Shown here piece after piece: positions 1,637 to 20,293 of a stretch of 59,102 nt of DNA (its first letter is position 1; every line of letters begins with the position of its first letter). Source of the stretch: Kiritimatiellia bacterium. Its GTDB lineage: Bacteria > Verrucomicrobiota > Kiritimatiellia > RFP12 > UBA1067. The position numbers and the translations under genes are program-made. The stretch spans positions 1-59,102 of the forward strand of contig JAGYOL010000002.1 in the NCBI GenBank assembly GCA_018399555.1. The letters are read 5' to 3'. The notes under the pieces were generated by a model. That model made no database searches, was not told the DNA's origin, and saw nothing but the letters and a program-made list of their open reading frames with translations.

Positions 1637-1729
1637 AAATTCCTCCGTTGTAAAACGCCGTTTATCCGATGGGTTGCAGGCAATCCGTCGGGCGATTATG
1701 AAACTTTTTCATTAAGGCAATATCCGATG

Positions 1730-4700
1730 TTACGGCGTCACAAGCCGCACACGATAAAATCGACTTTTGTGAGCGGGGGCGTTGGTGTCACACCACTCCA
1801 TGCTGGTTTGGTTGTAAAGTGCTTCCCAGGGCCCGTTAGTGGTTATTACAGCGTTTTCAACCAGCGAGGTGACTGCTATGATCTGATAACTTCGTCCGCC
1901 GACGGTGCTCCAGCGCATAGCGGCCTGTGTGGTGTTAGTCGGCCCTGAAACGAACCTCAAAAAATCAAGCGTATTAGTGGGGTCGGTTCCGCATAGGTAT
2001 TCGTGCAGATTGTTCACTCCGTCGGAATCGCTGTCGGCTGTTTTCGACATGCCCCCTGGAAAGTATAGGTTTTCCCAGGTATCCGCTACCGAATTGCTGT
2101 TGGCATCCACTGGGGTCAGGTAAAGAGTATCAAGGTCAACTTCAGCTCCGGTTATCCGGTTGCTGACTGCTCCCGGCAGGATGTACGGCTCATAACCGGC
2201 GAGAGTGAGTTGCATGTCCCAGTTACATGCGCCGAGGATAATATCGGATGGCAGAAGTCCGTCCACTCCGCTCAGCCAGTTGGTGCTGTAATCGGTCAGT
2301 ATCATATTGCCGGTCACTACGGTGCCGGTGAGTGAACCGCTGGTTGCGGTGAAGGATATCTGCGCGTTTTTCAGGAAGGCGTGCGTCCATGCGTCGCGCA
2401 CCACACCGGAGCTGATCCTGAGCGTTGAAAGCATTTCAAATCCGGCCATGCGCCAGCCGCCGTCAATTTCGACCAGCCGGGGATTGGCGTAGTAAATATT
2501 GGTCAGGCTTGTCACCTGATCGGGGAGAAGAGGATCTTCGCGTGCGATAAAGTCATCTGGTTCAGGCACACTGACCAGATAGGTGCCGTTGGTGAGACCG
2601 GAAAAAACCACACTTTTTGAGCCGTTGAACTGCATTGTTCCTGTGCCTTCGACGGTGACTGTGGTGTCTGTTGGCAGTGCACTGGTGTGAACATCATCGA
2701 CACCGAGAACAATCAACGAGCCGAGACCGTCGGCTGCCGGAATTTCGATACTGAGTTCATAGGTGCCGATCGGGGTATTGGTTGATGCTGTGTAGAGAGT
2801 CACGCATGTCAGGTACCAGCCGGATTCGGGGAAGTCGATACCGGTGTATTCGCCGTAATCCGAACCCTCTTCATCCACATGATCAATCAGTTGGAGTTTT
2901 CCGTCGGGAAGCTCGCGATAGATGGCGAGTACAGTATCCAGATCATCACTGAAGTGATAGGTTTCAAAATCATAAATGAAGTTTGTGACGAGGTAGACAC
3001 GAGTCCAGTCGGTGTCGCCAACGGAGTGGAAGTTACGCTGTTGCGCGATGCCGTGATAGAGTGCGGCTGTTTGCGGCGTATCATCCGGTTCACAGGCATC
3101 GGGCAGGATTATTTCAGTTTGCACAGGTTCACTTAGCGAGCCTAGCTCATCCTGCGCGTAGAATGTGAGTATATGGGTGCCAGGCAGCAGGAATGCGGTG
3201 CTTTGTGCCTCGTGGCGTCCGGTGATTGCGTTCCACGTCAGCGTGATAGTGTCGAGGGTGTTGGTGGCACAGCCGGTCGGTGGTGTCACCACACACCAGA
3301 CATCTGAAATTGTGTTCATGCCGGCAATGCCTGATGCCCAGATTGTTATCGGTGCTCCGGGGGCAGGCAGTGCGCTTACGGGCATGACTGCGCCGATTTC
3401 AGGGGAGTCAGCGCCGGTGACAAAGGCGGAGCCGAGCGTGGTTGCGTTGGCCAGCACGCCGTCGACATTCTTCTCATTGGCTGTGCCGTTGTTGTTGTCG
3501 TCAATCTGCGCCCTCTGTCTGATGCCGCCGCTGACGCGCCGGATGGCTCGCCGGGCATCGGTATAGGCGTACCCCAGAGTCTTGCCTGCGATGATACCGG
3601 CCAGCAGATATTGCGAAAAACTGACTGTGCCTCCGTTGGCAAGCAGTGCTTCGCGTGCTGGCTGGCTGGAAGCTATGACAATGCGAGATGCATCCGGGTT
3701 GATGGCGGTTTGATCCGAAGCCAGTGACGTAAGATAGGTACCTGCGCCTGAGAAATCAAGGATGACGTTTATCGGAACGGGGTTTGTTGCCTGATAAGCG
3801 TCAAGCCAGGTGGCGAGCTGATTGGTGCTCAGGCACTCAGACTCGTTCAACCTGAAGGTGTTGTTTACGCCCTCTCCGAGCAGGTAGAGCGTCAGTCGGT
3901 CAGTAGTGTTGGTTGTTGCCCAGGCCAGAGCTTCCTGAATGGCGGCGGTATTGGGTTCTGCGAATACGTCGCTGTAGCCGTCGTCGTCCAAGTCCTGCTC
4001 GGTGTCGGGTGAAATAATACGGATATGATCGGAGGCGAACAGACGCAGACGAAAGGTGGTGTAGGCCAATTGGGTGAGATAGTCAACTGCGCTTTGATTC
4101 GATGAGTTGGTGGTACCGCCCGCCACGAATATGACACGGTCAGCATAGCCGACCTGCGAGACATAGGACTCTCTTGGAGCTGAAATATTCCCGGCTTCAT
4201 CCTGGGCGTAGAATTGAATTTTATAGGTGCCTGCCGCAGTGAAGCCGTCATAGGTGATTTCGTAGCGGCCGTTGCTGCTGTCATAGTTCAGGTCGAGTTG
4301 CGGCAGATCTGTGACTGGATTGTCGGGGTTGGGATCATGATTTGGAGGAATTACCAGGCACCAGGTCTTTGAGAGGGGATGGAGTGCCGTGACACTGCCG
4401 ATCCAGAGCGTTGCCGTCGTTTCATCAGTGAGAATCTGATTGCCGCAAATCTCACCGATTTGCGGGAGATTTTCATTGAAGGTTGAGCTTGGTCCCACAT
4501 AGGTTTCGCTCGCGACACTGTAGTCGTTGGTGGTATAGCAGCCGTCTTTATCGTCGTCGAGTTGCGCAGACTGGTAGGCGGACATGGCACTTTGGGCCAA
4601 TGAGAAGCATTGCATTACGTCGTGACCCAGCAGAACACCGGAAAAAAACGCGCCGGAGAAACTGACCAGACCTCCTGCGACAAAATAACTGGGCTGTGCA

Positions 4701-7700
4701 TCGTTACAGGCCGCTATGACAATACGCTCAGCAGTGCCGGAATAGGTTAGCTCGCTCAAAAAACTGCCTGCATAGCAGAAATCCAACAGCACGGTGACCT
4801 TCATGCCGCCACTCTCCTGCAGAGAGTCAAGCCAGGAGTCAAGTTGTGCTGCCGTAAGAATCTCATTCTGATTGAGCCGGAAGTAGCCGCAGCCCGAAGA
4901 GTTGCCGCCGTGATCCACCAAGTAGATAAATATCTGATTGGCCCCTGCCAGTTCGTTTGTGATGGCTGCGGCGGTTTCCTGCAAGCCGGATGCGGCGTCA
5001 ATATCGTCAAGTATACCATTTCCGTCCACATCCTGATCTGGAACTGGATTGAGATATATGATATTTTCTTTTGAAAAACCGCGGCAGCGCAGAGTCGCGT
5101 AGGCGTTATCGGCCAGATAGTCGGTTGTCGGCCAGAGTGTGTCATCCGCCGATTTTCTGCCGGCTACGATCATAGCTTTGCCGGCCTTGGCAAGGAGCTG
5201 TGTGCTGACAACGTCGATGCGCGAGCGTCCGAGCCGGTTGTCACGGTGCCAGGCTTCCACAACATCGGTCCGTCCGGTCATGCCGCCCGCAGTGTAGACC
5301 ACTTCTGATTCCTCGTGAGGAACAATGTCAGCTCCGCTACGATTGTGAACGAATGCCCACTGCCACCCTGATGTAGTCGAGGTTGTTGCGGTTGGAGCGA
5401 CAAGTGACTCATTTGCAGCGGAGACATTAATGTTTTTCAGAGTTACACTGGTTGCAGAGCTGATTGTGCGACGTGCCGGTGAAATCAGTAGAGCAGGTTG
5501 AAGAATTGTTGCGGCGTGCGGTACTGCGGATTTGAAATTCAGGTTTTCGTTGATCAGGAATTCGTCAGCGATGGAAACAACTCCGTCGCAATTGATGTCG
5601 CCGCGGTTATAGCCTGCAATGCCGAACTGTGACTGGCTTATCAGAAGGTCAACACTGAGAATTTCACCGTCACCGTCGCTGTCGGCGCAGCGAAGCGCGC
5701 AGAAGGTGCCTTGCTGGCTGTTGACGGTTATGCAGGCGTTTTCGCCTCCGAAGTAGGCTTCGGAGGAAACGGTGAAATCATAAACAAGTGAATCTCCTGC
5801 AAAAGTGATAGGTTCGGCAGACATAGCCGCCAGATGATTGCGGTGCCTGACCACGATATAGCAGGCACTCTGCGCAGGAAGATCGACTGCAAGTTCGGGA
5901 TTTCCGTCATCATCGACGACCCACCCGTCGCATCGCAGAAAGGCGCTGCGCGAGTACAGTGCCGCATCATTCGCCATACCCCGGAATTCGAGCAGCACCC
6001 AGTCGGTGATATTGTCGGGAATATTCGCGGCTTTGCGCCGATCGGCGGCATAGGGCGAGATTTGCGGCAGCAGAAGATTGTCATTCAGGGTGCAACTCAT
6101 TTGATTGGAGTCGGCCGCCAATGCTCCGCTCAAAAACAGTCTGACGGACAAACTCACATTAACCTCATAGGCACCGATGTCGCTGGATGTGCCGCTGATG
6201 CGCGGCTGTCCGCCACGGTCGTAGGCTTTGAACATCCAGAAGCTGTTAATTCCGGCGTCGACGCAAGGAGAATCAGAAGGCACACGAAAGTTTCCGCTCT
6301 CCGGTTTTATGAAAGAGGTGTCGAAGGAGATAGAGTTCTGATCCTGAGCGTTGGCCGCATGCCACTCCGGCAGGGATGTGAAATATTGGCGGGTGCCGGA
6401 CGCCAACTGCCATGCGCCGACTGCCGCACCGTTATCGGCGTGTAGATTGTTAAAGTCGGAGTAGTGCAGTGTACCGGGCAGAACCACCAGGCAGGCGTGT
6501 TCCGGTCGGGTGGTATGAATCAGATTATTTTTCAGCAGATTTGCCAGAGTTCCTCTGCGATTGTTATTCAATAAGTGGATGCCGTCACCACCGCAGACAA
6601 TGGTGTTGTTTTCAATGATGAACACTGTCCGGTTGCCGAAAAGATCGACGCCGCCCCTGAGTTCCAGCCCCGCTCCGTCGCCGGCGATCACATTCTGCAG
6701 AATTCGGTACTGCCCGCCGGCATTTTCGGAGCGCGGTTCAATTCTGATGGCGGCCACCGAGTTGCTCAGACAGCTGTTGCCGGTCAAGGTTACATTCCGG
6801 GCGGAGGATGCGTCAATCGCAATACCGATATCGCCATTAACGCAGGTTACATTCTCGATTTTAAGATGGTCGGCGAAAACTTGAATGCACGCGTTTGTTT
6901 TTTCTTCTCCGTCGGGCATGCGTGAAAGGATGGTTTTTTCACCGACGCCTCGAATAATGATTGGATTGTCGGCAACACCTTTGTGGGAGGGGGCTATGAC
7001 GGTGTCGCTGTTCTGGACATAAATCCCCCGATCCAGATAAACGGTGTCGCCTGCTTCAAGCGTGTAACGTGCCAGCACCTCGTCAAGCGAAGGCAGGGGC
7101 TGATCCGGTGCGGTTCCTGTGTTAAGTGTCGCGCCGGGTGCGGTGCAGTATTGATCGCCCTCTGTGGAATCGTCGTTGACATAATAGTTCCGGATTATTC
7201 GCTGAACGTAAAACAGGCTTTCGGTGGCATCAGAAACCGTGGCGTCCCGGCTGCAGATCACTCGCAGTTTCAAAGTGCCTGCGTTGAGCAATGGTGCGGG
7301 TACCTTCCAGTTGAAGGTTCCTGAAGCTGGCAGAGTGCCGGTATCGTTGATGTCAAACCACTGGCTGTCGTCGGTAGCAACCTGCAGACGGACGCTGTCA
7401 TCAGCCAGCCAACCCTGTCCGGACGAGAGCCAGGCAATGGCAAGCTCCTCGCTGTAGGTATTGCCGCCGCAGGGTGCCAGCAGCAACAGCGAACGCACAG
7501 GGCTGCTGCGTGATGCCTGCTCTGTATTACCGTAGGCACCCATGTTTATAATTCCGCCGTTAGCCGGGGGTTCTTTGTCGAGAGGCATGGCCGGGTCACC
7601 GGCATCAACACAGGGGCTGGTGGCAAAGTCAGAAACCCAGCTCCCGTTCTGCCATGAACCGCCCTGACTGCGCAGGTGGTAATCGTGCAGGCGTTGAGCG

Positions 7701-8668
7701 GTGAAAAGCGGATTGCGATTGAAGCTGTTGAGATCGAGTCCACTGATTGCTTGCCACTGTGACAGTGTCAGCTTGACTGAATAATTGGCGGCACTGAGAT
7801 CAACCACCGCGGCGGCACCGCCGTGCGCATAGAAATTATTGAAATTTGAGCTTTGCGGAATATTCAGGTCTGCGAGAGAGAGACAGGCGGACTCATCTTT
7901 AGCTGAGATTATATTGTTGATGAGCATGGTCATGCCGGGGTGTCCGCCGCAGGCGATTCCGGTTCCCTGGGAAATCGCTACGGTGTTGTTGACAACATCG
8001 AATGCGGCGCGTTTAAATCCGATACCGGCCTGCAGACTCATCCCGCCGCCGCTGCAGATGTTGTTACGGATCGAGTATGTGTCGAAGCCTTCGTCAAGGG
8101 GATCGGACAGCACCTCGATACTTAGCGATGATTGCCCGATAAAGCTGTTTTTTTCAATCCGGGCGTTACGGCAGCTTTGCGGATTGATTGTGACTGCGGT
8201 GGTTCCTCCGTAAATTTGAAAACCCTCCACATGGGTGAAGTCCTGATTTATAAAGAGAGATGGATTGGTGGACGCATCCTGGCAGATGAGGATGCTGCGG
8301 CGGTTTGCGCCGATCAGTTTGAACCATTGAGTTTCTGGTGCACCGGGTGGCGGACCGGTATCCGGTAACTCCAGGGTGTTATTCAGCGAGTATTCACCGC
8401 TGTCGACATAAATAGTGTCGCCGAACGAGGGTGCGTAGCGTACGATTACCGAGTGGATGTCCGGCAGCGGAGTCGCAGGCGTCAGTCCGTCATTGTCCGG
8501 ACTGCCGGGGGAACTGCACCAGAGGTCATTTGCGATGGAGTCGTTGTTGACGAAGTAGGTGTTCTGTGCAATGCCGGTCATTGCGATGTTCAGCCAGAGG
8601 GTGACAACCAGAAGAAAAGGCATCTGAATAGCGGTAGGTGGGACAAGTGCGAGGGTGGTTTTTCTCAT
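1730..8668 (-). CDS. Giant (2312 aa) secreted multidomain protein. Domain order: signal peptide, two right-handed beta-helix modules, dockerin-like Ca-binding repeat, two legumain (peptidase C13)-like modules each followed by an Ig-like domain, a PPC-like domain, and a thrombospondin-type-3-like DxDxDG motif near the C-terminus.
   Basis: Uninterrupted 6.9-kb ORF with a hydrophobic N-terminal signal. YFVNND..GDTIYVDSGEY and YYVNDD..GDTVYLDRGIY are beta-helix starts, and both modules end in GAYG/GAYE. DSDGDG..DINCDGVVS is dockerin-like. VDHGG/DFCYAGSF is a clan-CD dyad. CEPDDTPQTA..GDTDW is PPC-like. DSDSDGVNNLHEYLCGTDP is TSP3-like. Confidence 0.85.
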   Translation of the reverse strand: MRKTTLALVPPTAIQMPFLLVVTLWLNIAMTGIAQNTYFVNNDSIANDLWCSSPGSPDNDGLTPATPLPDIHSVIVRYAPSFGDTIYVDSGEYSLNNTLELPDTGPPPGAPETQWFKLIGANRRSILICQDASTNPSLFINQDFTHVEGFQIYGGTTAVTINPQSCRNARIEKNSFIGQSSLSIEVLSDPLDEGFDTYSIRNNICSGGGMSLQAGIGFKRAAFDVVNNTVAISQGTGIACGGHPGMTMLINNIISAKDESACLSLADLNIPQSSNFNNFYAHGGAAAVVDLSAANYSVKLTLSQWQAISGLDLNSFNRNPLFTAQRLHDYHLRSQGGSWQNGSWVSDFATSPCVDAGDPAMPLDKEPPANGGIINMGAYGNTEQASRSSPVRSLLLLAPCGGNTYSEELAIAWLSSGQGWLADDSVRLQVATDDSQWFDINDTGTLPASGTFNWKVPAPLLNAGTLKLRVICSRDATVSDATESLFYVQRIIRNYYVNDDSTEGDQYCTAPGATLNTGTAPDQPLPSLDEVLARYTLEAGDTVYLDRGIYVQNSDTVIAPSHKGVADNPIIIRGVGEKTILSRMPDGEEKTNACIQVFADHLKIENVTCVNGDIGIAIDASSARNVTLTGNSCLSNSVAAIRIEPRSENAGGQYRILQNVIAGDGAGLELRGGVDLFGNRTVFIIENNTIVCGGDGIHLLNNNRRGTLANLLKNNLIHTTRPEHACLVVLPGTLHYSDFNNLHADNGAAVGAWQLASGTRQYFTSLPEWHAANAQDQNSISFDTSFIKPESGNFRVPSDSPCVDAGINSFWMFKAYDRGGQPRISGTSSDIGAYEVNVSLSVRLFLSGALAADSNQMSCTLNDNLLLPQISPYAADRRKAANIPDNITDWVLLEFRGMANDAALYSRSAFLRCDGWVVDDDGNPELAVDLPAQSACYIVVRHRNHLAAMSAEPITFAGDSLVYDFTVSSEAYFGGENACITVNSQQGTFCALRCADSDGDGEILSVDLLISQSQFGIAGYNRGDINCDGVVSIADEFLINENLNFKSAVPHAATILQPALLISPARRTISSATSVTLKNINVSAANESLVAPTATTSTTSGWQWAFVHNRSGADIVPHEESEVVYTAGGMTGRTDVVEAWHRDNRLGRSRIDVVSTQLLAKAGKAMIVAGRKSADDTLWPTTDYLADNAYATLRCRGFSKENIIYLNPVPDQDVDGNGILDDIDAASGLQETAAAITNELAGANQIFIYLVDHGGNSSGCGYFRLNQNEILTAAQLDSWLDSLQESGGMKVTVLLDFCYAGSFLSELTYSGTAERIVIAACNDAQPSYFVAGGLVSFSGAFFSGVLLGHDVMQCFSLAQSAMSAYQSAQLDDDKDGCYTTNDYSVASETYVGPSSTFNENLPQIGEICGNQILTDETTATLWIGSVTALHPLSKTWCLVIPPNHDPNPDNPVTDLPQLDLNYDSSNGRYEITYDGFTAAGTYKIQFYAQDEAGNISAPRESYVSQVGYADRVIFVAGGTTNSSNQSAVDYLTQLAYTTFRLRLFASDHIRIISPDTEQDLDDDGYSDVFAEPNTAAIQEALAWATTNTTDRLTLYLLGEGVNNTFRLNESECLSTNQLATWLDAYQATNPVPINVILDFSGAGTYLTSLASDQTAINPDASRIVIASSQPAREALLANGGTVSFSQYLLAGIIAGKTLGYAYTDARRAIRRVSGGIRQRAQIDDNNNGTANEKNVDGVLANATTLGSAFVTGADSPEIGAVMPVSALPAPGAPITIWASGIAGMNTISDVWCVVTPPTGCATNTLDTITLTWNAITGRHEAQSTAFLLPGTHILTFYAQDELGSLSEPVQTEIILPDACEPDDTPQTAALYHGIAQQRNFHSVGDTDWTRVYLVTNFIYDFETYHFSDDLDTVLAIYRELPDGKLQLIDHVDEEGSDYGEYTGIDFPESGWYLTCVTLYTASTNTPIGTYELSIEIPAADGLGSLIVLGVDDVHTSALPTDTTVTVEGTGTMQFNGSKSVVFSGLTNGTYLVSVPEPDDFIAREDPLLPDQVTSLTNIYYANPRLVEIDGGWRMAGFEMLSTLRISSGVVRDAWTHAFLKNAQISFTATSGSLTGTVVTGNMILTDYSTNWLSGVDGLLPSDIILGACNWDMQLTLAGYEPYILPGAVSNRITGAEVDLDTLYLTPVDANSNSVADTWENLYFPGGMSKTADSDSDGVNNLHEYLCGTDPTNTLDFLRFVSGPTNTTQAAMRWSTVGGRSYQIIAVTSLVENAVITTNGPWEALYNQTSMEWCDTNAPAHKSRFYRVRLVTP
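3644..4138 (-). other. Legumain-like module 2, dyad replaced (Glu1599 at 3872..3874 for His; Ser1640 at 3749..3751 for Cys); predicted pseudo-peptidase
   Basis: RVIFVAGG...LTLYLLGEGVN...INVILDFSGAGTY...RIVIASSQ. Module 1 has 89 residues from its first residue (AMIVAG) through the His; module 2 has 89 from its first residue (RVIFVAG) through the substituted Glu. Confidence 0.6.
4682..5176 (-). other. Legumain/peptidase-C13-like module 1 with intact His/Cys dyad (His1253 at 4910..4912, Cys1298 at 4775..4777)
   Basis: AMIVAGRK...IFIYLVDHGGN...VTVLLDFCYAGSF...RIVIAACN. This is the order and spacing of the clan-CD His-Gly / Ala-Cys motifs. Confidence 0.6.
6158..7192 (-). other. Beta-helix module 2 of the giant protein (aa ~493-837)
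   Basis: RNYYVNDD...GDTVYLDRGIY start parallel to module 1, ends SDIGAYEVN. Confidence 0.6.
7526..8563 (-). other. Beta-helix module 1 of the giant protein (aa ~36-381)
   Basis: NTYFVNND...GDTIYVDSGEY start, repetitive N/G/I-rich rungs, ends INMGAYGN. Confidence 0.6.
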
Positions 8669-9297
8669 GGCTGATCCTCCTGCTGAACAGTTTCGGCTTG
8701 TGGCTGTGCCGATATTTGTGTGGCTGTGATCTGTTTTCGCAGTGTCGCAATCCGCCGTTCACATCGCTGTCGACGGTCGGCGTCATTTGCGGTCATCTGA
8801 GCCAGAATCAGGGTTTTGATGGCTGAGTGCTTTTCATCGAGGGCATTCTGGGCTTCGGCGAGTTGCCAAAGCAGCGTGAAGCGTTGTTGTGAATCCGGTT
8901 TTTTTTGCAATGCCTGACACAGAAGTAATGCGGCGTCCCTGTGTTGTTCCAGTTGTGCATAAATCCCGGCCAGATAGGCGGCAGGTTGCGGGTGACGACT
9001 GGCCACACGCCTTGCCCAAGACAGCGTTTTTGCCGGCTGTTGCATTCTGCTGTAAAGGTTGACCAGTCGGGGGGCGAGGTTCACTTCAAAGCCGATATCG
9101 CGCCGTAAAAGCTCTTCATAAGCCGCAACCGCTACGGAATTGCGTCCTTGGTTCTCAGCGGTTACCGCCTGCCGCATCAATGTTGCCGACGCATCATCGG
9201 TGCATTTTTCCGTCGCCAAGACTCCGCCGCAGGCGCACAGCAGAATCAGAGTTCCACCCAGGCGGACTCTTTTAAGTTTTATAAGTGTCAAAATCAT
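8665..9297 (-). CDS. Small secreted or lipid-anchored TPR-like helical-repeat protein
   Basis: N-terminal hydrophobic signal (LGGTLILLCACGG) and helical repeat content (AVAAYEELLRRD..., AAYLAGIYAQLEQHRDAALLL). Its stop overlaps the start of the giant gene (ATGA at 8665..8668). Confidence 0.65.
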   Translation of the reverse strand: MILTLIKLKRVRLGGTLILLCACGGVLATEKCTDDASATLMRQAVTAENQGRNSVAVAAYEELLRRDIGFEVNLAPRLVNLYSRMQQPAKTLSWARRVASRHPQPAAYLAGIYAQLEQHRDAALLLCQALQKKPDSQQRFTLLWQLAEAQNALDEKHSAIKTLILAQMTANDADRRQRCERRIATLRKQITATQISAQPQAETVQQEDQP

Positions 9298-9324
9298 TTT
9301 ATTTTAATCCCATACGTGTATCTC

Positions 9325-11106
9325 TTAAAAATGATAAATGCAGGAAAGATAGACTTCATGCCTTTCCATGTCGGTTTCCAATGTGTCTTTCTGGCCGGGA
9401 ACCAGTGTGCCCATAACGTTGTTGCCCCAGGAGTACATATAGGCCACATCGATTATAATCTTGTTGGCTCCGCGTCCGATTGAAAAGCCTGATCCCAGCG
9501 TGACGCCCCAATACTCATCCGGACGACCGATTGCGGGCCGCTGTTCCCAGGAGAGACCCGCACGAAACGGGATCTCTGTTTTCGACAGCACCCATAGATA
9601 TTCGGTGCCGGTGCGCAGTGCCCAGCAGTCATCAACAGAGTGGTCACCGTAATCGGAACCGTCAATCGGGTTGATGCGCTTTTCGCCGTCAGCCTTGAAT
9701 GAATAATCCGACCACCAGGTCTGGCTCACATCGAAAGAGGTTGAGAGTCGGTTGTTCCAGTGCCATACGGTACCGGCTGACCACTGCAGGGGAAATTCGA
9801 ATTCAACATCTTTTGATTCGTGTCGGGTGCTGGCGGCTCTGGTGTTGTCGCCTTCGGTGGTCACACTGGAATAAATTCTGCGGGATTGGCGCGCCTTGGC
9901 GGTCCAGGGCAGATCAAGGCAGAAGCCGAGAGTCAGTTTCTCATTGACATTCAGCAGAGTTCCCAAGGTGGCGTTGACACCGCGGAAACTGGTGATGCGG
10001 TCATAAACATCGTAACGTCCGGTATAGTGGATTCGCGACAGATCGGTACGGTTTTCAGAGCTTGAATACGGCGGCACTTCACCGGATTCCGGGCCGATCG
10101 GCATGTTGAGTGTGGGACTGATATACTCGCCCGTGTAACTCCAGAAACCAGAGGTGTCGCGGTAATCGGAGGTAGTGGTCAGCTTGTCGAGTGTACCGTG
10201 GTAACTGGCCTTTGTGCGTGAATGAATATCGGGCGAACCCAGTAAACCCTCCTGATAAAGGTTGAGGGCAATACCGAAAGCCAGTTTGGGAGTGGCCTGA
10301 AAAGCGAAAGCCGGTGTGATTGCCTGCACACTGCCTTCCTGCTCGAAATCCAGCCGTCCGAGAGTTGAAGAGCTGAGTGTCTGATCCAGAATTGTGGTTT
10401 TGCGGGTGGTCAGATATTCGGTCACATCCACATATCCATTGGCAGCTGCATAGCGGTTGAAGAGGGTTTCGGTGGTAGTTGAGCTTCTGGTATAACGTTC
10501 GCTGCTGGTTGCGCGGTCATGAAAGTGTGCGTGAAAGCGTTGCGAAAAATCATAAACCTCCTGGTAGTTCAAAGACAGCACTGCGGTGTGTCCGAACAGC
10601 CGTAGCGGCAGAACTGCGCTCATGTAATTCAGGGCGTGATTGCTGTATTCATCATCGCCGACTTTGTAATCGGGGTTCCCTGAGTAGTGTGACAGCCTGT
10701 CGTGTTTCAGACGGTAGACAAATGAAAACTCCGGGCGTTCGAGCTGCGTAAGCCCTGCCGGGTTCCATGAAGCTGCCGTGGCATCGTCGGCAACCGCAGT
10801 AAAGGCGCCGGCCACACCAAGAGCCCGTGCGCCTGAACCGCTGGGCAGCGGTGCTGAAAATATTGTGGGAGCCGAAAAGGGAGGTGCGGATGGTGCCGAA
10901 GGTTTCAGCAGTGAGCCGCCCTGATCAACATGCACCAGGGGGATCTCAACATCACCCGCTAATGTTGAAAGGGTGAAACTGTCCGCAATTGCCGGTGTCG
11001 GAAGAACTGCGGCAGCCGCCAGTGCAGTCCTTAATAAACGTGGTTTCCCGCGACCCTTAAATACCGCCGGAGCGGTGACTTTTTTGAGTATGCTCCTGAA
11101 ACTCAT
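9325..11106 (-). CDS. FadL/TodX-like outer-membrane beta-barrel protein
   Basis: Signal peptide. N-terminal motif GARALGVAGAFTAVADDATAASWNPAGL is typical of FadL/Toluene_X/PorV-like barrels. Alternating beta-strand pattern throughout and a C-terminal aromatic residue (…CIYHF). Confidence 0.75.
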   Translation of the reverse strand: MSFRSILKKVTAPAVFKGRGKPRLLRTALAAAAVLPTPAIADSFTLSTLAGDVEIPLVHVDQGGSLLKPSAPSAPPFSAPTIFSAPLPSGSGARALGVAGAFTAVADDATAASWNPAGLTQLERPEFSFVYRLKHDRLSHYSGNPDYKVGDDEYSNHALNYMSAVLPLRLFGHTAVLSLNYQEVYDFSQRFHAHFHDRATSSERYTRSSTTTETLFNRYAAANGYVDVTEYLTTRKTTILDQTLSSSTLGRLDFEQEGSVQAITPAFAFQATPKLAFGIALNLYQEGLLGSPDIHSRTKASYHGTLDKLTTTSDYRDTSGFWSYTGEYISPTLNMPIGPESGEVPPYSSSENRTDLSRIHYTGRYDVYDRITSFRGVNATLGTLLNVNEKLTLGFCLDLPWTAKARQSRRIYSSVTTEGDNTRAASTRHESKDVEFEFPLQWSAGTVWHWNNRLSTSFDVSQTWWSDYSFKADGEKRINPIDGSDYGDHSVDDCWALRTGTEYLWVLSKTEIPFRAGLSWEQRPAIGRPDEYWGVTLGSGFSIGRGANKIIIDVAYMYSWGNNVMGTLVPGQKDTLETDMERHEVYLSCIYHF

Positions 11107-11290
11107 ATCACAACCCGATCACTTTCAAATAACCCGCACGGTTTAAATTGTAGGCGATTAGTTCACAATAATCAACCGAGTAAAATCAAAGCTTTATCTT
11201 TTCAGTCGTTTGAAAGTGCTGGCTTCTTTCATAAGTAGAAGATATAATCACAATGTTTTTAAGTTGTGTGCAAAGTGGCGGGGTAAATCT

Positions 11291-11878
11291 GTGAACAGAG
11301 CGTGTGATCTCAATCAACCGGATATCGATGGGTTGAAGGCTAATGATGAAAGGGCCTGGGGGTGCTTTTTTTCCGAGTATGAGAGGGAGATACGCGCTGT
11401 CGCCGCTTGGCCCAAATGGCATTTTGATGCGCACACGCGCGAGGATGTCGTACAGATCATCAAAGTTGCAATCGTACAGTCAATAGAAAATCTGCACTCT
11501 GAGCAGGCTTTGCGGGCATTTGTCCGCAAAATATGCGTTCACAGATGTATTGATATGCTGCGCAGAAAGTTGCGTGAGAAGGGAAGGTTGCTGCCGCTGG
11601 GCCGATACAATGATCACGGTGAGTGGGAAAATGTTGATGTTGTCGCTGACGATGAATTTGATCCCGTTTCAGCACTCCTTCGGATCGAACGTGTTTTAGC
11701 AGTCAGAGCAGCACTGGCGCAGCTGGATGAGAGTTGTCAGCAGATGATCAGTCAATTTTATGTAGACAATCTCTCTTATCGCGAAATAGCCGAAGTTGAA
11801 GGCATATCGATCAATACGGTGGGGAGCAGACTTTCACGCTGTCTTAACAAACTCAGACCTCTCTTGAATTTTTTTTAG
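11291..11878 (+). CDS. ECF-type RNA polymerase sigma-70 family factor
   Basis: Region 2 (FFSEYEREIRAVA..EDVVQI) and region 4 HTH (LSYREIAEVEGISINTVGSRLSRCLNKLR). The track ORF begins at a TTG (11210) with no SD. The in-frame GTG at 11291 lies downstream of a perfect TATAAT (11243..11248), so it is preferred, but the start remains uncertain. Confidence 0.8.
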   Translation: MNRACDLNQPDIDGLKANDERAWGCFFSEYEREIRAVAAWPKWHFDAHTREDVVQIIKVAIVQSIENLHSEQALRAFVRKICVHRCIDMLRRKLREKGRLLPLGRYNDHGEWENVDVVADDEFDPVSALLRIERVLAVRAALAQLDESCQQMISQFYVDNLSYREIAEVEGISINTVGSRLSRCLNKLRPLLNFF

Positions 11879-11933
11879 GGAATATATTTGTTTCCCGTAC
11901 GACATTAGAACTGGTGACGGTAACAACATCGGC

Positions 11934-12770
11934 ATGGAGCCTATCCGGCAAGGAGGATGTGTGAAAGAAAGATCATCCAGCGAGATTAAAACTGTATGGG
12001 CCTATCTGCATGGCGAATTAACAGATGATGAACGTCGCCTTTTCGAGCGGCGCATGCAGATGGATGCAGAGCTGCGGTGGTTGTATGCTGATGCCGCCCG
12101 GATGAATAGTCTCCTGCGCGAGACCATACCTGCGCAGGAGAGAGCGGATTGCTCTGTTGAAGCCTTGGTCGAAGAGGCACTTTCCGTTTGGGAGCAAAGC
12201 TCATCCGGTGATGCGGAGAACTCTGAACTGGGTGGAAATGTCGAAGTTGGCAATGGTGATGTTTATAAGTTGAGTCGAGTTATGTCGACATCCAAATGGT
12301 GGAAAATCCTCTCTCATCCCGCACTCGGGTTTGGTGCCCTGGCTGCGGCTGCCGTTATTATGCTTGCCTCGCCGGGGTTACGTGGTTCCGTTCCGCTGCG
12401 ATGGGATAAAGCTGAATTCACACCGCTGGCTCTGCGTGGCCAGCATTCGACGGCGTATGACAATGGATTAACGGAGGAGGTTGCAGTTCGCTGTCGGCAG
12501 TTATTGAGGGTGAAGCTGGAACGTGAGCTGGCCGGACGCAACCTCGGTTCTCTTTCGCCCATGACGGCTTCGCTGCAATTGCGTGAACTGCGTGACGGTG
12601 CTTTTTCGTTGACGGTTAAGATACGCGCGCAGTCAGGTGTCAGTGTCGGTTTCTGGAGCGGCGACTACTCCGGGGAGGCACTCTTCAGAGAACAGGCGGG
12701 AAGCTCGGCGGCGGTCATGGCTGATGATCTTGCCGCATGGTTAGACTCATACGGGGGGGAAGATCAATGA
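11934..12770 (+). CDS. Single-pass membrane anti-sigma factor (non-zinc anti-sigma N-terminal domain, periplasmic C-terminal domain)
   Basis: N-terminus VWAYLHGELTDDERRLFERRMQMDAELR resembles the anti-sigma domain but lacks the HxxxCxxC cysteines. One TM segment (ALGFGALAAAAVIMLA). Sits immediately downstream of the ECF sigma gene. An alternative GTG start at 11961 follows AGGAGG. Confidence 0.65.
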   Translation: MEPIRQGGCVKERSSSEIKTVWAYLHGELTDDERRLFERRMQMDAELRWLYADAARMNSLLRETIPAQERADCSVEALVEEALSVWEQSSSGDAENSELGGNVEVGNGDVYKLSRVMSTSKWWKILSHPALGFGALAAAAVIMLASPGLRGSVPLRWDKAEFTPLALRGQHSTAYDNGLTEEVAVRCRQLLRVKLERELAGRNLGSLSPMTASLQLRELRDGAFSLTVKIRAQSGVSVGFWSGDYSGEALFREQAGSSAAVMADDLAAWLDSYGGEDQ

Positions 12771-14944
12771 GCAAAGTAACGCAGAAGAAAAGATACGCGT
12801 TTTCTATAATTCTGACCTGTACGTTGCTGATTGTACTTGCTGGTTGTCTGGTACCGCTCTCGGAGGAGCAGGGTGAGACCATGTACTATCATAACTGGTG
12901 GAACTACTATGAACGTGCCGTATATCGTATGTGTCAGGGCAGAATTGATGCGGCTAGTGAAGATTTTGAGCGTTGTCTGGGAGTGCGCAGCGGTGCTAAA
13001 TTCGGTAATTCACAGGACATGTGGCGTGCACGTACCTACGGACTTCATTTTCTGGAGGGATATTTCCCGAATCGGGAACTCGGTATCTGCCACTATGAAA
13101 AGAATAATATAACGCAGGCGGTTTCCTATCTCGAAATATCGTTGCGACAGGAGCCTTCCGGGCGTGCCAAGCACTATCTCAATTTGGCTCGGGGGAAATT
13201 ATATTCAGGACGGACGGTGCCGCCGCCCGGTTTTAGATTCGATACAGATATTGATGCACTTTTGACCAGTGAACGCAGCATCGAACTCTCCGGCAGTGTG
13301 GCGGGCAGAGCGTGCATACGTCGTTTGAGTGTAGGGGGGCATTCTGAATTTATCGAACTGGCGCCGCCTTCAATGAGTTTTAAACGCGTGATTACTCTTT
13401 CGCCGGGAACCAATGTGATAGCCGTCACAGCGGAGGATCTGCTTGGGCAGTCGGTTACACAACTGGTTGTCAGAGTAGCCGACCGCCAGCCGCCGCGTCT
13501 GCTGGTGCGGCGGCTGTCCAGAGTTGGCGGCGACTGGCTGTTAGAGGGGTTCTGTCGAGACGAGTACGGTCTGGCGGAGGTAACAGGAGGGTCAGCTCAG
13601 ATCTATCGCGCCGGTGGCGATGCCGACGCGGTGGAGTTTGAGGTGCCGGTTGCACTGCGTTTGACAGGCAGCGGCATCAAGTTCCGGGCGGTTGACTGTG
13701 CTGGCAATGTGCTGGTCTGCCCGCTCAATGCGGAAATGCTGCAGACAGATGAGGGCTTATCTGATCTTTCCGCGCTGCCAGTTCCGGTTGTCGGCTTTGC
13801 CGGACATCTCGCACTGGCCGCTGGTGCCGGCTGCTGTCGCTGGCTGTCCTCTCCGGAGTTTGGTAATCTGGTTAACGGCGTGTTGCCGACGGAACTGACC
13901 TCTGCCGGGGTTTATCTTCCATCCTTTGTTTTCGCCGCGGTGACCGCTTCGCCGCAGGTGGCGCAGTCAGCCGATCGCTTGCGACCCTCACTGCTGCTCA
14001 AGGATTGTCAGCCGCTGACACGCGTTTATGCGGAAGATTTTTTTCTGGATGGACGGGCCTCGGACGGCGGCGGGTTGGCCAGCGTAACCATCAATGGGGA
14101 AACACTACTGCAGGCCGGTGACGAAGGTGCGCTTAGTGCTTATTTTATGCGGCGTATTCCGTTAGATATGGGAACAAATGAATTCGAGGTGGTCGCAACG
14201 GATTTAGCTGGCAACCGCAGTGTGCGGGAGTTGAAAGTGATTCGGTTGCGTCCCGAGTATCAGGATGATGCAATGCGGCTGAGTGTCGGGGTGCCGCCGC
14301 TGACACCGGCGGATACCGGTTATGTGGGTGTGCGTATCAAACGTTCAATGGAGATGGAGCTAACCCGTCCGCCGGTGCGTTTCCGTCTGCTTGAGCGTAG
14401 CGAGGGTTGGGATTTTGTACTGCGTGAACAGGGGTTGAGTCTTTCCGACCTGGCTGATCCCTCGGCGGCGTTGCGTATCGGTAAAATGGTTCCGGCTGAA
14501 ATGCTGTTGATGGGCCGGATTTACACCGAGTCCAAAGGAATCACTATTTATGTCAAGGTTGTGGATACCTCCGAGGGTGTGATTCTGTTTGCCAGTGACG
14601 TATACACCCCGGATCCCGACCGTGTGCTGGATGAGGTTGTATCCGGACTGGTGCTCAAGGTTCAGCAGGGGTTTCCCTTGATCTCAGGCGAGGTGCTTGA
14701 ACATAAGGGTGCGACTGTGACTTTGAATGTCGGCCGTGTCGGCGGAGTTACAAAGAACAGCCGCTTTTTTGTAATAAACACACAAAATAAAGTTGATCTG
14801 GCTCACGGCCAAGTATGCCGTCAATCGGAGAAACCGGTGCAGTTGCAGATTGTGACGGTCGGGCAGGATCACAGTACAGCCCGAATCATTCCACCCGAAG
14901 CTGAAAAAATTGTGAAAGAAGGCTATTATGTCTACACCCGCTGA
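12767..14944 (+). CDS. Lipoprotein with a TPR-like region, two Ig-like domains and a C-terminal CsgG/LpoB-like plus beta-barrel (FlgT_C-like) module
   Basis: The ATG at 12767 overlaps the anti-sigma stop (ATGA). Lipobox LLIVLAGC. Ig-like segments end in GTNVIAVTAEDLLGQS and GTNEFEVVATDLAGNRS. C-terminus: FRLLERSEGWDFVLREQGLSLSDLADPSAALRIGKMVPAEMLLMGRI...YVKVVDTSEGVILFAS. Confidence 0.75.
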   Translation: MSKVTQKKRYAFSIILTCTLLIVLAGCLVPLSEEQGETMYYHNWWNYYERAVYRMCQGRIDAASEDFERCLGVRSGAKFGNSQDMWRARTYGLHFLEGYFPNRELGICHYEKNNITQAVSYLEISLRQEPSGRAKHYLNLARGKLYSGRTVPPPGFRFDTDIDALLTSERSIELSGSVAGRACIRRLSVGGHSEFIELAPPSMSFKRVITLSPGTNVIAVTAEDLLGQSVTQLVVRVADRQPPRLLVRRLSRVGGDWLLEGFCRDEYGLAEVTGGSAQIYRAGGDADAVEFEVPVALRLTGSGIKFRAVDCAGNVLVCPLNAEMLQTDEGLSDLSALPVPVVGFAGHLALAAGAGCCRWLSSPEFGNLVNGVLPTELTSAGVYLPSFVFAAVTASPQVAQSADRLRPSLLLKDCQPLTRVYAEDFFLDGRASDGGGLASVTINGETLLQAGDEGALSAYFMRRIPLDMGTNEFEVVATDLAGNRSVRELKVIRLRPEYQDDAMRLSVGVPPLTPADTGYVGVRIKRSMEMELTRPPVRFRLLERSEGWDFVLREQGLSLSDLADPSAALRIGKMVPAEMLLMGRIYTESKGITIYVKVVDTSEGVILFASDVYTPDPDRVLDEVVSGLVLKVQQGFPLISGEVLEHKGATVTLNVGRVGGVTKNSRFFVINTQNKVDLAHGQVCRQSEKPVQLQIVTVGQDHSTARIIPPEAEKIVKEGYYVYTR

Positions 14945-17054
14945 CAACAATACAAAAAACGGTTCTGCACAACCTTCTGACGCAGGTGCGAATGCGTGGA
15001 AGATCAACCGGACAGGACTCGCCGCTCCGTCTGTGAGTGAACCTCGTAAAGAGATACTGGTAAACGACGAAGAGGTTGATGGTGTGAAAGACCGCTCTCA
15101 TTCGCGAGTTGCGAGCGGGCGCGGCCGGGGTTGGCTGTTTATAAATCTCGCAGCTGGCGTGATTCTGTTTGTGGTGCTGGGATTACTCTGGGCCGAGAAG
15201 CGCAGTGCCGTCTCTGCGGCGGATGAGTCCGATCGGATAATGAGATCGGAAGGCGCTGTGAACTCAGCCGCTGCAGCCGGAGAGGCGGGCGAAATGCCGC
15301 GTTACCGTGCTCTGGTAATTGGTATCAACCGCTATTCTCAGGTGAATGGAGAGGGCTGGCCGCAGCTGCGCACCGCACGGGCGGATGCGGAGGCTGTCGC
15401 TGAAACCTTGATCAGCCGTTTCGGATTCGAGGTGCGGACCCTTCTTGATGAACAGGCCACCCGTTCAGCTGTCCTGAGTGCGTTGGATGAGATGGCCACC
15501 ACCGGTGATGACGGAGCCGACCTGATCTATTTCGCAGGTCACGGAAGTTTCGATGAGAAACTGCAGGAGGGCTATTGGATTCCGGTGGATGCGCGAAAGA
15601 GCATTGCCGGCCACGCGGCCAAAGATGGATGGTTGTGGAATTCGACGCTGACACGTCTGATCAGTGCCTCGAATGCCCGGCATGTTCTGGTGCTTTCGGA
15701 TGCCTGCTACAGCGGCTCTCTGTTTCGTGGTGACAAGCCGCTGAGTGCCGCTAGAAGCAGGGGATGGTATGAGCGTGCTATTTCGATACCGTCACGCTAT
15801 CTGATAACCAGTGGCGGGTTGGAGCCAGTGCTGGACAGCGGCACTGAACACAGTGTCTTTGCCCAACAGGTGCTCAACTATCTCAACTACAGTGAACCGG
15901 ATGTTTTTTCGGCCAACGATCTCGGGTCGGCCCTGCGGGAGCAGGTTGCATCTCTGACCGGTCAAATGGTGCAGATGGGGCCGCTGCCCCTGAGTGCCCA
16001 TGCTGGCGGCGAGTTTGTTTTCGTGCGTCACGCGCAGGGTCGCCCTCTGGCCGAATTAAAACCATCAGCAGGATTTTCTGTTGGTACGCGTGAGGCGGCC
16101 GATCGCGGTGCGGATGCGTCGTTCAGCAGAGATGAGGCACTGCGTAACGCTCTGGCACTCACCCGTGCCGGTGCCTCCAGATCAGCTGTCTCGCTGATCA
16201 ACGTTGTTTTGCAGCAGAATGCCCAGGATCAGCTGGCTCGTGCCGTTGCAGATTACATCAGGCGCAGCGAACAGAAGGAGGGACGCGACGAGTTGCGCCA
16301 GCTGATCGAGAAGATCGATGCTCGTGGAAAAACTGCGCCAGCTACGGGAAGGAATATCTCCGTTGTGCCTCCGCCCCGGGTTCTCGCCTGCCTGGGTCCT
16401 GAAATTTCATCCGGCACTCCGACTGCGGAGCACATTGCTTTGCTTTACCGTATTATGCTACGTTCCGGTTTGGAGAACCGTGTGGCACTGCGGGTGATTG
16501 AGCGTGAGGCTCTGGAAACTCTGTTGCAGGAGCAGAATCTCGGGGCATCCACGCTGGCTGATCCGCGTGCACGCCTGGCTATCGGCAAACTGCTTCCTGC
16601 CAGTCTGCTGCTGTTGGGTGATGTAATCCCCTCTGATTCGGGAGAGTTGATATACCTGCGTCTGGTGGACACCGAAACAACTCAGGTATTGGCGTCATTT
16701 TCAGCTGCACGTACGGATACGGTCGATCAGGAGAAAGTCTGTGACGATCTGACCGCCCGTATCTCGGATCGGATTGTCGCACTCAAACCCTTGACGGCAG
16801 TGGTCACAGAGCTCGCCGATACGCATCTGCGTGCCGCCCTGGGAAACTATCACGCCGTCAAAAAAGGTGCTGTCTTCACAGTTCTGTCTCGCAGACAGCG
16901 TGACAAAAAGCTGCCTGGTGATTTTGAAGAATGTGTGCTCGGCAGTGCTACGGTTAACACCCTTTCAGAGTTCTCCTGCGATCTGGATGTTGTGTGGGGT
17001 GAGGAAGCACCAGCGACGGGCAATGATCTTTGGATACGGGAGTTGTCTGAGTGA
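14928..17054 (+). CDS. Membrane-anchored periplasmic caspase-like (peptidase C14) protein with a C-terminal CsgG/LpoB-like module
   Basis: One TM segment (WLFINLAAGVILFVVLGLLWA). Caspase p20-like core RYRALVIGINRY...LIYFAGHGS (His205, 15540..15542)...VLVLSDACYSGS (Cys260, 15705..15707). The C-terminus is homologous to the upstream lipoprotein. The start overlaps the upstream gene by 17 nt. Confidence 0.85.
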   Translation: MSTPADNNTKNGSAQPSDAGANAWKINRTGLAAPSVSEPRKEILVNDEEVDGVKDRSHSRVASGRGRGWLFINLAAGVILFVVLGLLWAEKRSAVSAADESDRIMRSEGAVNSAAAAGEAGEMPRYRALVIGINRYSQVNGEGWPQLRTARADAEAVAETLISRFGFEVRTLLDEQATRSAVLSALDEMATTGDDGADLIYFAGHGSFDEKLQEGYWIPVDARKSIAGHAAKDGWLWNSTLTRLISASNARHVLVLSDACYSGSLFRGDKPLSAARSRGWYERAISIPSRYLITSGGLEPVLDSGTEHSVFAQQVLNYLNYSEPDVFSANDLGSALREQVASLTGQMVQMGPLPLSAHAGGEFVFVRHAQGRPLAELKPSAGFSVGTREAADRGADASFSRDEALRNALALTRAGASRSAVSLINVVLQQNAQDQLARAVADYIRRSEQKEGRDELRQLIEKIDARGKTAPATGRNISVVPPPRVLACLGPEISSGTPTAEHIALLYRIMLRSGLENRVALRVIEREALETLLQEQNLGASTLADPRARLAIGKLLPASLLLLGDVIPSDSGELIYLRLVDTETTQVLASFSAARTDTVDQEKVCDDLTARISDRIVALKPLTAVVTELADTHLRAALGNYHAVKKGAVFTVLSRRQRDKKLPGDFEECVLGSATVNTLSEFSCDLDVVWGEEAPATGNDLWIRELSE
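15297..15890 (+). other. Caspase/peptidase-C14-like catalytic domain of the 14928..17054 product
   Basis: His-Gly and Ala-Cys dyad motifs in canonical order and spacing (see parent CDS). Confidence 0.75.
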
Positions 17055-17056
17055 TC

Positions 17057-20242: not shown

Positions 20243-20293
20243 GACACTTCTCTTTACAGGCGGTTTCAATCACTGGGCATGGGTTATGCCGGG

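Follow-up and report, generated by a model that had tools for sequence, protein, structure and literature searches.

The 59,102-nucleotide stretch analyzed here, hereafter the window, comprises positions 1 to 59,102 of contig JAGYOL010000002.1 from a Kiritimatiellia bacterium (GenBank assembly GCA_018399555.1). Our subject is a group of seven genes between positions 1,730 and 17,054 that encode, among others, a sigma factor of the extracytoplasmic function (ECF) type, an anti-sigma factor, an outer-membrane barrel, a lipoprotein and a caspase-like peptidase. An earlier reading of the sequence alone, the original prediction, had arranged these genes in two divergent units, and this is borne out by a check of the open reading frames (ORFs), all seven of which sit at the coordinates given earlier, and by direct reading of the overlaps. 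The four plus-strand genes run in the same direction and the last three overlap: the anti-sigma and lipoprotein genes share an ATGA at 12767-12770, and the lipoprotein and caspase genes overlap by 17 nt at 14928-14944. On the minus strand, the genes for a small tetratricopeptide repeat (TPR) protein and a giant secreted protein share a further ATGA at 8665-8668. These overlaps uphold the proposed coupling of the genes. The barrel gene, the plus-strand genes and the element between them are as follows.

9325..11106, minus strand: FadL/TodX-family outer-membrane barrel, 593 aa, a core component (Toluene_X)
11205..11260, no strand assigned: conserved intergenic block of ~55 bp, GTCGTTTGAAAG..CTTCCTTCTTCC...TATAAT.GTCAATG (alignment of 9 loci)
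11291..11878, plus strand: ECF sigma factor (Sigma70_r2, Sigma70_r4_2, TIGR02937)
11934..12770, plus strand: predicted single-pass anti-sigma factor, 278 aa (zf-HC2 in orthologs, conserved motif)
12767..14944, plus strand: lipoprotein with lipobox LAGC (AlphaFold2 (AF2) model, Foldseek, Pfam)
14928..17054, plus strand: C14 (metacaspase-type) peptidase, predicted to be inner-membrane-anchored and periplasmic (Pfam C14 and CsgG)

All seven window proteins were searched with Pfam profiles and scored against curated cut-offs, and NCBIfam and PADLOC models were also run against them. The domain calls of the original prediction held for Peptidase_C14, Beta_helix, Toluene_X, Sigma70_r2 and Sigma70_r4_2 and, over part of the profile, for Peptidase_C13; they failed for PPC, which had no Pfam match, and for dockerin, which at E 0.0026 was below cut-off. 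The envelope-targeting signals that had been proposed (a signal peptide, lipobox or transmembrane (TM) segment) were found in each product concerned when the sequences were read by eye.

Five of the seven genes form a conserved core. A scan of one genome per species yielded 79 loci, and every ORF in them was compared with the window proteins. Fifty-six loci, in 48 species-level genomes labelled Kiritimatiellia, Lentisphaerae, Victivallales, Pontiella or Verrucomicrobiota, were of the module type. The full set of barrel, sigma factor, anti-sigma factor, lipoprotein and caspase was present in 25 loci, usually with the barrel divergent from the other four, and in eight further loci the anti-sigma factor was too diverged to score, although an ORF of fitting size with the motif described below is there (L027, for example). 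Most of the remaining related loci are interrupted by contig ends. Gene order is altered in L021, L030 and L036 with linkage kept, and seven genomes carry at least two copies of the module, with four complete copies in MHBK01. The caspase-domain matches in other phyla (L057-L079) came without the module. The expected co-localization in related genomes is therefore established, and the arrangement is far beyond chance. The conserved core consists of a FadL-family barrel, an ECF sigma factor, a zf-HC2-like anti-sigma factor, a lipoprotein of TPR-like, immunoglobulin (Ig)-like and FlgT-like parts, and a peptidase of family C14 that ends in a FlgT-like tail. The five components are correlated in their similarity scores (rho 0.65-0.90), as is expected from shared phylogeny, and this correlation is not independent evidence.

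The peptidase comprises a cytoplasmic tail (residues 1-65), a TM helix (~70-90), a caspase domain (127-341), a helical linker and a FlgT-like module (~480-708). The caspase domain matches Peptidase_C14 (PF00656) at 60.3 bits against a cut-off of 21.4 over residues 127-341, and its closest relative in the PDB is GSU0716 (3BIJ). In an alignment of 58 orthologs, five residues are invariant: H205 (codon 15540-15542) and C260 (codon 15705-15707), which form the catalytic dyad, together with G206, D153 and D258. The earlier assignment of Cys260 as the catalytic cysteine is thereby supported. D153 and D258 align with the Asp residues of GCVND and DSCHSG in AtMC4 (6W8S) and with the equivalent Asp of MALT1. 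In Arg/Lys-specific enzymes, these Asp residues form the acidic S1 pocket. The window enzyme is predicted to be catalytically intact and, because neither the dyad nor the two Asp residues of the S1 pocket vary among the 58 orthologs, to cut after Arg or Lys. Further toward the C terminus, CsgG matches residues 510-568 at 36.1 bits over profile positions 43-100 of 210 only; the full-length CsgG profile with its transmembrane hairpin is not matched, and the similarity lies in the shared alpha/beta periplasmic subdomain. At the other end, the tail of residues 1-65 (14928-15122, plus strand; MSTP.DN... and G.NAWK.N..GL) is conserved in the TM-anchored orthologs P0009, P0029 and P0039, which suggests a cytoplasmic function or partner.

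In the lipoprotein, TPR-like helices come before three Ig-like domains, which include a disordered linker (residues 329-401), and a FlgT/LpoB/CsgG-like module forms the C-terminal part; the AF2 model of the protein has a pLDDT of 81.7. In Pfam it matches Glucodextran_B and, weakly, CsgG (E 0.007). A PDB sequence search returned no match, and the comparison is informative only through the predicted structure, for which the best Foldseek matches were FlgT (3W1E, E 4.8e-11), FlgT in the LPHT ring (8Z5N, 1e-10) and LpoB (4Q6L); the FlgT matches have low TM-scores of 0.24-0.26 and a root-mean-square deviation of ~18 Å because the query is a multidomain protein. The caspase protein (residues 519-658) and the lipoprotein (537-675) have the FlgT-like module in common, with 32% identity over ~140 residues. 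By structure for the lipoprotein and by sequence for the caspase protein, this C-terminal module resembles the fold of FlgT of the Vibrio flagellar H-ring, LpoB, CsgG and the N-terminal part of TolB. It occurs without flagellar context, and the two proteins are therefore not FlgT orthologs; no flagellar genes turned up among the window ORFs or the matched ORFs of related loci, not all of which are annotated. Outside the Planctomycetes-Verrucomicrobia-Chlamydiae (PVC) group, a metagenome-assembled genome (MAG) of Desulfobacteraceae (L061:508-2838, plus strand) encodes a single lipoprotein in which a homolog of the TPR-Ig half (E 1e-32) is fused to a C14 domain. This Rosetta-stone link argues that the lipoprotein and the caspase work together.

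The sigma factor scores above cut-off for Sigma70_r2 (27.3 against 24), Sigma70_r4_2 (46.9 against 25.7) and TIGR02937 (75.3 against 42.9), and none of the ECF subgroup models reaches its cut-off. With regions 2 and 4 only, it fits a group 4 (ECF) factor. The longest ORF begins at TTG 11210 and an alternative start lies at GTG 11291; the latter is probably the true start, because the conserved non-coding block at 11205-11260 overlaps the ORF that begins at TTG 11210. The anti-sigma factor has an N-terminal helix resembling an anti-sigma domain (ASD), WAYLHGEL, followed by a TM helix at ~128-146 and a periplasmic domain. In the window protein zf-HC2 scores 16.8 bits against a cut-off of 22.2, and the model matches 11 of 14 anti-sigma orthologs at E-values of up to 0.1 (best 1.9e-5). 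A gene position directly after the sigma gene and a single-TM topology fit a class I anti-sigma factor. In the periplasm, W157, R168 and G169 are conserved in all 39 aligned orthologs within a juxtamembrane segment that is otherwise variable, and R168-G169 (codons 12435-12440) lies ~20 residues outside the TM helix.

Sequence features of the barrel include a signal peptide, the hatch motif and, at the C terminus, an aromatic beta-signal (...HF). It matches Toluene_X at 46.7 bits against a cut-off of 29.7, has profile matches to TodX, TbuX and FadL chains, and lies beside the lipoprotein and caspase in at least 33 loci. Ahead of the hatch motif, residues ~45-85 form a conserved Pro-rich N-terminal extension of ~40 aa (HVGP.G.L..P..P..P.FRPPTIF) that could be a periplasmic contact segment. 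Upstream of the barrel gene, the intergenic block has invariant columns GTCG, CTT.CTT.TT and TAT..T in the nine aligned loci and is also found in more distant loci; it occurs once in the window, with 0 occurrences expected by chance. On the minus strand it reads GGAAG-N17-CGAC, an ECF-like -35/-10 arrangement facing the barrel gene, and on the plus strand it contains TATAAT. We infer from these motifs that the block acts as a promoter.

Orthologs of the peptidase differ in what precedes the caspase domain. Several have a lipobox or lipoprotein signal peptide directly ahead of it. Others have a cytoplasmic domain N-terminal to the TM helix, which is a Ser/Thr kinase in L022, L036, L037 and L042 and a TIR_2 domain in L023, L026, L029 and L059; most orthologs have neither. 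Because some orthologs bear a lipobox and others a kinase or TIR on the far side of the TM helix, the C14 domain is placed outside the cytoplasm, as the original prediction had it, and the topology suggests that both the caspase and FlgT-like parts lie there. The kinase-TM-caspase and TIR-TM-caspase proteins, whose caspase domain is periplasmic, are laid out much like receptor kinases and Toll-like receptors. A clean swap of outputs, in which TIR or kinase would occur only where sigma and anti-sigma factors are missing, holds in part. The two evaluable TIR loci, L023 and L029, leave no room for a sigma/anti-sigma pair between barrel and lipoprotein, and none was seen at the kinase locus L036, where the upstream flank is interrupted by a contig end. 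L022, L042 and L059 do not fit, having a fused kinase or TIR plus sigma and anti-sigma factors, nor does L033, discussed below.

The two remaining genes of the group are accessory. They and the parts of the giant protein are listed here.

8665..9297, minus strand: small accessory TPR protein, hydrophobic signal or anchor at the N terminus (TPR_14, 24.4 bits against 23.5)
1730..8668, minus strand: giant secreted protein, 2312 aa, an accessory and variable partner (Pfam)
4469..5191, minus strand: C13-like module 1 of the giant, aa ~1160-1400 (Peptidase_C13, E 1.7e-8, profile positions 110-189; DHGG and DFCYAG)
3389..4111, minus strand: C13-like module 2 of the giant, aa ~1520-1760, catalytically degenerate (30% identity to module 1, E 6e-40)
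1733..2746, minus strand: conserved C-terminal ~338 aa of the giant (comparison of locus ORFs)

In the giant protein, two regions of beta-helix precede a Ca-binding stretch that resembles a dockerin and a pair of C13-like modules, each with an Ig-like domain behind it; then come transthyretin-like domains, a TSP3-like repeat and, at the end, a beta-sandwich that closes with FYRVRL. Its Pfam matches are Beta_helix, NosD, Disaggr_assoc and Peptidase_C13, the last at 31.7 bits against 22.8 over profile positions 109-189 of 258 only. The two legumain-like modules of the original prediction are both real, as their mutual identity shows, but only the first has the His and Cys residues. Module 1 keeps its DHGG and DFCYAG motifs in eight orthologous giants; module 2 reads GEG and DFSGAG, with His replaced by Glu and Cys by Ser, and thus has no dyad. 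Assignment to clan CD is safe and assignment to family C13 specifically is not.

The distribution of the giant and TPR genes does not bear out the earlier view of a module built around two clan-CD proteins. Giant orthologs and the TPR gene are confined to nearer relatives, the TPR gene to L001, L003, L006, L010-13, L023 and L042. Elsewhere the place of the giant is taken by an unrelated large protein, by a ~400-aa protein or by nothing comparable, and maturation of the giant, one of the roles suggested originally, can therefore not be the general function of the module. In Pontiella-type loci the ~400-aa protein beside the barrel corresponds to the last ~330 residues of the giant (~1980-2310) alone. 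The final 130 aa (1733-2122, minus strand), a TSP3-like repeat and a beta-sandwich ending in ...RFYRVRL, represent a widespread C-terminal domain of very large proteins that no Pfam or NCBIfam model matches and that could be an uncharacterized surface-anchoring or sorting domain. At E<=1e-3 a search with the C-terminal domain reached 6974 representative proteins, and at E<=1e-10 it reached 450, often at the exact C terminus; many of the matches run through the TSP3 repeats. Large secreted proteins ending in the same ~125-aa TSP3 and beta-sandwich domain adjoin most modules with enough flank, and none adjoins the modules at L018, L032 and L044. We rejected the domain as a dedicated partner of the module, since it is widespread and missing beside some modules. 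The AF2 model of the giant's C terminus is weak (pLDDT 63.6), and its fold matches to transthyretin, CnaB and SusC NTE-like domains do not separate the hypotheses considered below.

Elements of the module have counterparts in described systems. As in FecA-FecR-FecI and RseA/DegS/RseP, an ECF sigma factor and single-pass anti-sigma factor are encoded beside an outer-membrane barrel, a plausible periplasmic site-1 protease is present and many paralogs can occur per genome. Unlike in FecIRA, the barrel is of the FadL type rather than a TonB-dependent transducer with a signaling domain, and the anti-sigma factor has no FecR domain; STN, TonB-dependent receptor and FecR models had no Pfam match on either protein. 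Unlike in RseA/DegS, the candidate protease is a clan-CD C14 enzyme in the same operon and not a serine protease such as DegS or Prc, and a FlgT-like lipoprotein is an obligatory partner. GSU0716 (3BIJ) and bacterial orthocaspases and metacaspases share the C14 fold, His/Cys dyad and acidic S1-pocket residues; what the window protein has beyond these is an anchor (TM or lipid), the helical linker, the FlgT-like module and a fixed operon partnership. Operons pairing a sigma-70-family factor with a metacaspase have been reported in Myxococcus, Anaeromyxobacter, Haliangium, Sorangium, Ralstonia and Fibrobacter, and TM helices or signal peptides were reported for ~15% of the metacaspases of prokaryotes (Asplund-Samuelsson et al. 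2012, PMC3501461). ECF54 genes lie near CHAT and subtilase genes, and proteolytic control has been proposed for ECF54, which lacks an anti-sigma factor (PMC8999054). Both cases couple an alternative sigma gene to a caspase-superfamily protease; compared by description only, they differ from the module in that the reports, none of which includes experimental characterization, give no barrel, FlgT-like lipoprotein or anti-sigma motif. Our searches of the literature on ECF factors with caspase or Peptidase_C14, on sigma factors of Kiritimatiellae and Pontiella and on Myxococcus metacaspases with ECF factors found no account of the five-gene module or of the Arg-Gly motif, and the main text of the ECF reclassification paper mentions neither caspase nor FadL nor CsgG. 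The novelty that the original prediction saw in the arrangement needs qualifying, since sigma/metacaspase operons and TM-bearing or secreted metacaspases have been known since 2012 (PMC3501461).

We give about even chances to the reading that the core is a trans-envelope signaling module specific to the lineage of Kiritimatiellia, Lentisphaerae and other PVC relatives, with the anti-sigma factor as the target of the peptidase. We favor it because of the organization of the operon, the invariance of the active site, its predicted preference for Arg/Lys, the Arg-Gly of the anti-sigma factor, the kinase and TIR variants and the multiple paralogs. Also in its favor are the persistent linkage of the five genes, the FlgT-like module common to lipoprotein and caspase, the ECF-like block between the divergent units and the known capacity of FadL-family barrels such as BamG to dock proteins (PMC12611786). 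The sensor side would be formed by the FadL-family barrel, the lipoprotein and the periplasmic C14 peptidase, the last held at the inner membrane by its TM helix or, in some orthologs, by a lipid anchor, and the usual output would be the co-transcribed ECF sigma factor with its single-pass anti-sigma factor. An envelope or cell-surface cue, for which a surface ligand or the state of a barrel-associated surface protein are candidates, would alter the assembly of barrel, lipoprotein and peptidase. The peptidase would then make the site-1 cut in the juxtamembrane periplasmic segment of the anti-sigma factor, most plausibly after Arg168 of the Arg-Gly motif, and intramembrane proteolysis would free the sigma factor, which may use the conserved intergenic element to transcribe the divergent operon of barrel, TPR (where present) and surface-protein genes and, probably, the operon that encodes it. 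Paralogous systems have this periplasmic unit wired to a cytoplasmic Ser/Thr kinase or TIR domain besides or instead of the sigma/anti-sigma pair. The gene content, its conservation, the logic of the topology and the invariant residues are shown by the sequences, and the physical complex, the substrate, the cleavage site and the regulon are all proposed here by inference. Among the roles suggested by the original prediction, a protease-driven signal acting on the anti-sigma factor fits the evidence best. A more far-reaching version, which we regard as possible but doubtful, is that the FadL-type barrel and FlgT-like lipoprotein control access to a metacaspase-type protease in the periplasm, which cuts at the invariant Arg-Gly and would be the first member of the caspase family to serve an anti-sigma factor as site-1 protease, and that this sensor is interchangeably wired to an ECF sigma factor, a receptor-kinase or a TIR output, constituting a new signaling class.

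Several observations weigh against trans-envelope signaling. The barrel has no TonB-type or other known signaling domain. The strand and type of the intergenic element are ambiguous, dyad-motif counts alone could not settle the strand, and scans for generic sigma-70 promoters and terminators over 1500-17400 found no enrichment over shuffled sequences. L033 has barrel, lipoprotein and caspase without a sigma factor and without a fused output domain. The Arg-Gly could be a binding motif instead of a cleavage site, a fused kinase or TIR is not obviously needed for a pure site-1 role and is not explained by it, and contact of the peptidase with the anti-sigma factor, or cutting of it, is a proposal from sequence.

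Three other explanations were weighed. One is that the barrel, the FlgT-like lipoprotein and the clan-CD peptidase form a sorting or maturation machine that exports, processes or anchors large proteins with the C-terminal domain, with the sigma and anti-sigma factors controlling only its expression. Such a machine would be an analog of the attachment complex of the type IX secretion system (T9SS; PorU/PorV/PorZ/PorQ), whose PorV is a barrel of the FadL kind and whose PorU is a sortase-like clan-CD peptidase acting at the cell surface. The combination of a FadL-family barrel, a clan-CD cysteine peptidase and neighboring large proteins with a conserved C-terminal domain is indeed alike in both, large proteins with the C-terminal domain adjoin most modules with enough flank, and in Pontiella-type loci the ~400-aa protein is conserved beside the barrel. 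[quoted passage not shown] These matches, however, are far under their cut-offs (PorV_fam 34.2 against 90, PorV2 33.2 against 325, BamG 50.7 against 250), with the PorV_fam and BamG alignments covering mainly the generic FadL hatch motif. The module has no T9SS genes, the giant had no match to a T9SS C-terminal domain model in NCBIfam, the peptidase is of family C14 and not C25-like, and the bacteria belong to the PVC group and not to Bacteroidota. Many orthologs of the peptidase are fixed to the inner membrane and have a kinase or TIR on its cytoplasmic side, so that action at the surface, as for PorU, is not possible for them. A C-terminal domain found in thousands of representative proteins and absent beside three modules is not a dedicated partner. 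A further point against a sorting machine is that the sigma and anti-sigma genes lie within the lipoprotein/caspase operon, a placement typical of accessory regulators. We consider this explanation unlikely.

Rather less probable in our judgment is a sigma-E-like envelope-stress circuit in which the peptidase would be a DegS-like site-1 protease, the lipoprotein would be an RseB-like modulator and the signal, instead of an external cue, would be barrel or surface protein left unassembled in the periplasm. The operon logic is the same as for trans-envelope signaling, the divergent gene encodes an outer-membrane protein with a canonical aromatic beta-signal, and the peptidase, like DegS, has an inner-membrane tether. 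Yet up to four diverged paralogous modules in one genome, each with its own barrel, suit specific sensing better than they suit a general stress response, kinase and TIR variants would be unexpected in a housekeeping circuit, and Pfam detected no PDZ-like peptide-sensing domain. The remaining explanation, which we think improbable, is an envelope-surveillance conflict or anti-phage system, with caspase, TIR and kinase as immune-type effectors against surface attack and the sigma factor inducing defense or suicide. TIR-TM-caspase variants do exist, TIR, caspase and Ser/Thr kinase are hallmark domains of prokaryotic conflict systems, and a Myxococcus island of cyclic-oligonucleotide-based anti-phage signaling system (CBASS) and CRISPR genes is controlled by an ECF sigma/anti-sigma pair (PMC11506125). 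The weak match of the caspase protein to the EACC1-associated model (caspase_w_EACC1, NF047832) is 69.7 bits against a cut-off of 140, however, and PADLOC returned a generic caspase match alone, with nothing for the other six window proteins. TIR and kinase are missing from most orthologs, the flanks of the group are ordinary chromosomal genes (dnaJ/grpE-like, PEP carboxykinase, sulfatases), and the matched ORFs of related loci showed neither defense genes nor genes of mobile elements.

Although caspase homologs abound in bacteria, a substrate or role is known for few of them, and discussion of them has mostly concerned cytoplasmic cell death and defense. For a large conserved subgroup, the module offers a testable hypothesis: a periplasmic C14 protease with predicted Arg/Lys specificity, a candidate substrate in the anti-sigma factor, a candidate site at Arg168-Gly169 and defined partners. 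If trans-envelope signaling is correct, a new class of protease would enter regulated anti-sigma proteolysis, a FadL-type barrel would join the known outer-membrane signal transducers, and a main sensory system of Kiritimatiellia/Lentisphaerae-type bacteria would have been described. Cultured members of this group are known as polysaccharide degraders. The module is seen in Pontiella MAGs, and cultured Pontiella strains, which may carry it, could provide an experimental system.

Other genes of the window lie outside the seven-gene group. Directly downstream of the giant gene on the same strand, 518-1636 (minus) encodes a histidine kinase of PAS-HisKA-HATPase architecture that lacks a TM segment. 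The gene at 17057-20269 (minus), which converges with the caspase gene, encodes a secreted protein of 1070 aa in which a middle domain of the HZS_alpha family (116 bits) is combined with CxxCH stretches like those of cytochrome c and with an FGE-sulfatase domain; this gene also adjoins the module in L001 and has a homolog nearby in L006. Two further secreted proteins, at 36090-37514 (minus) and 55645-57234 (minus), have a sulfatase-like ADDLGY motif near the N terminus, as read from their translations, and fit a Kiritimatiellia-type polysaccharide degrader.

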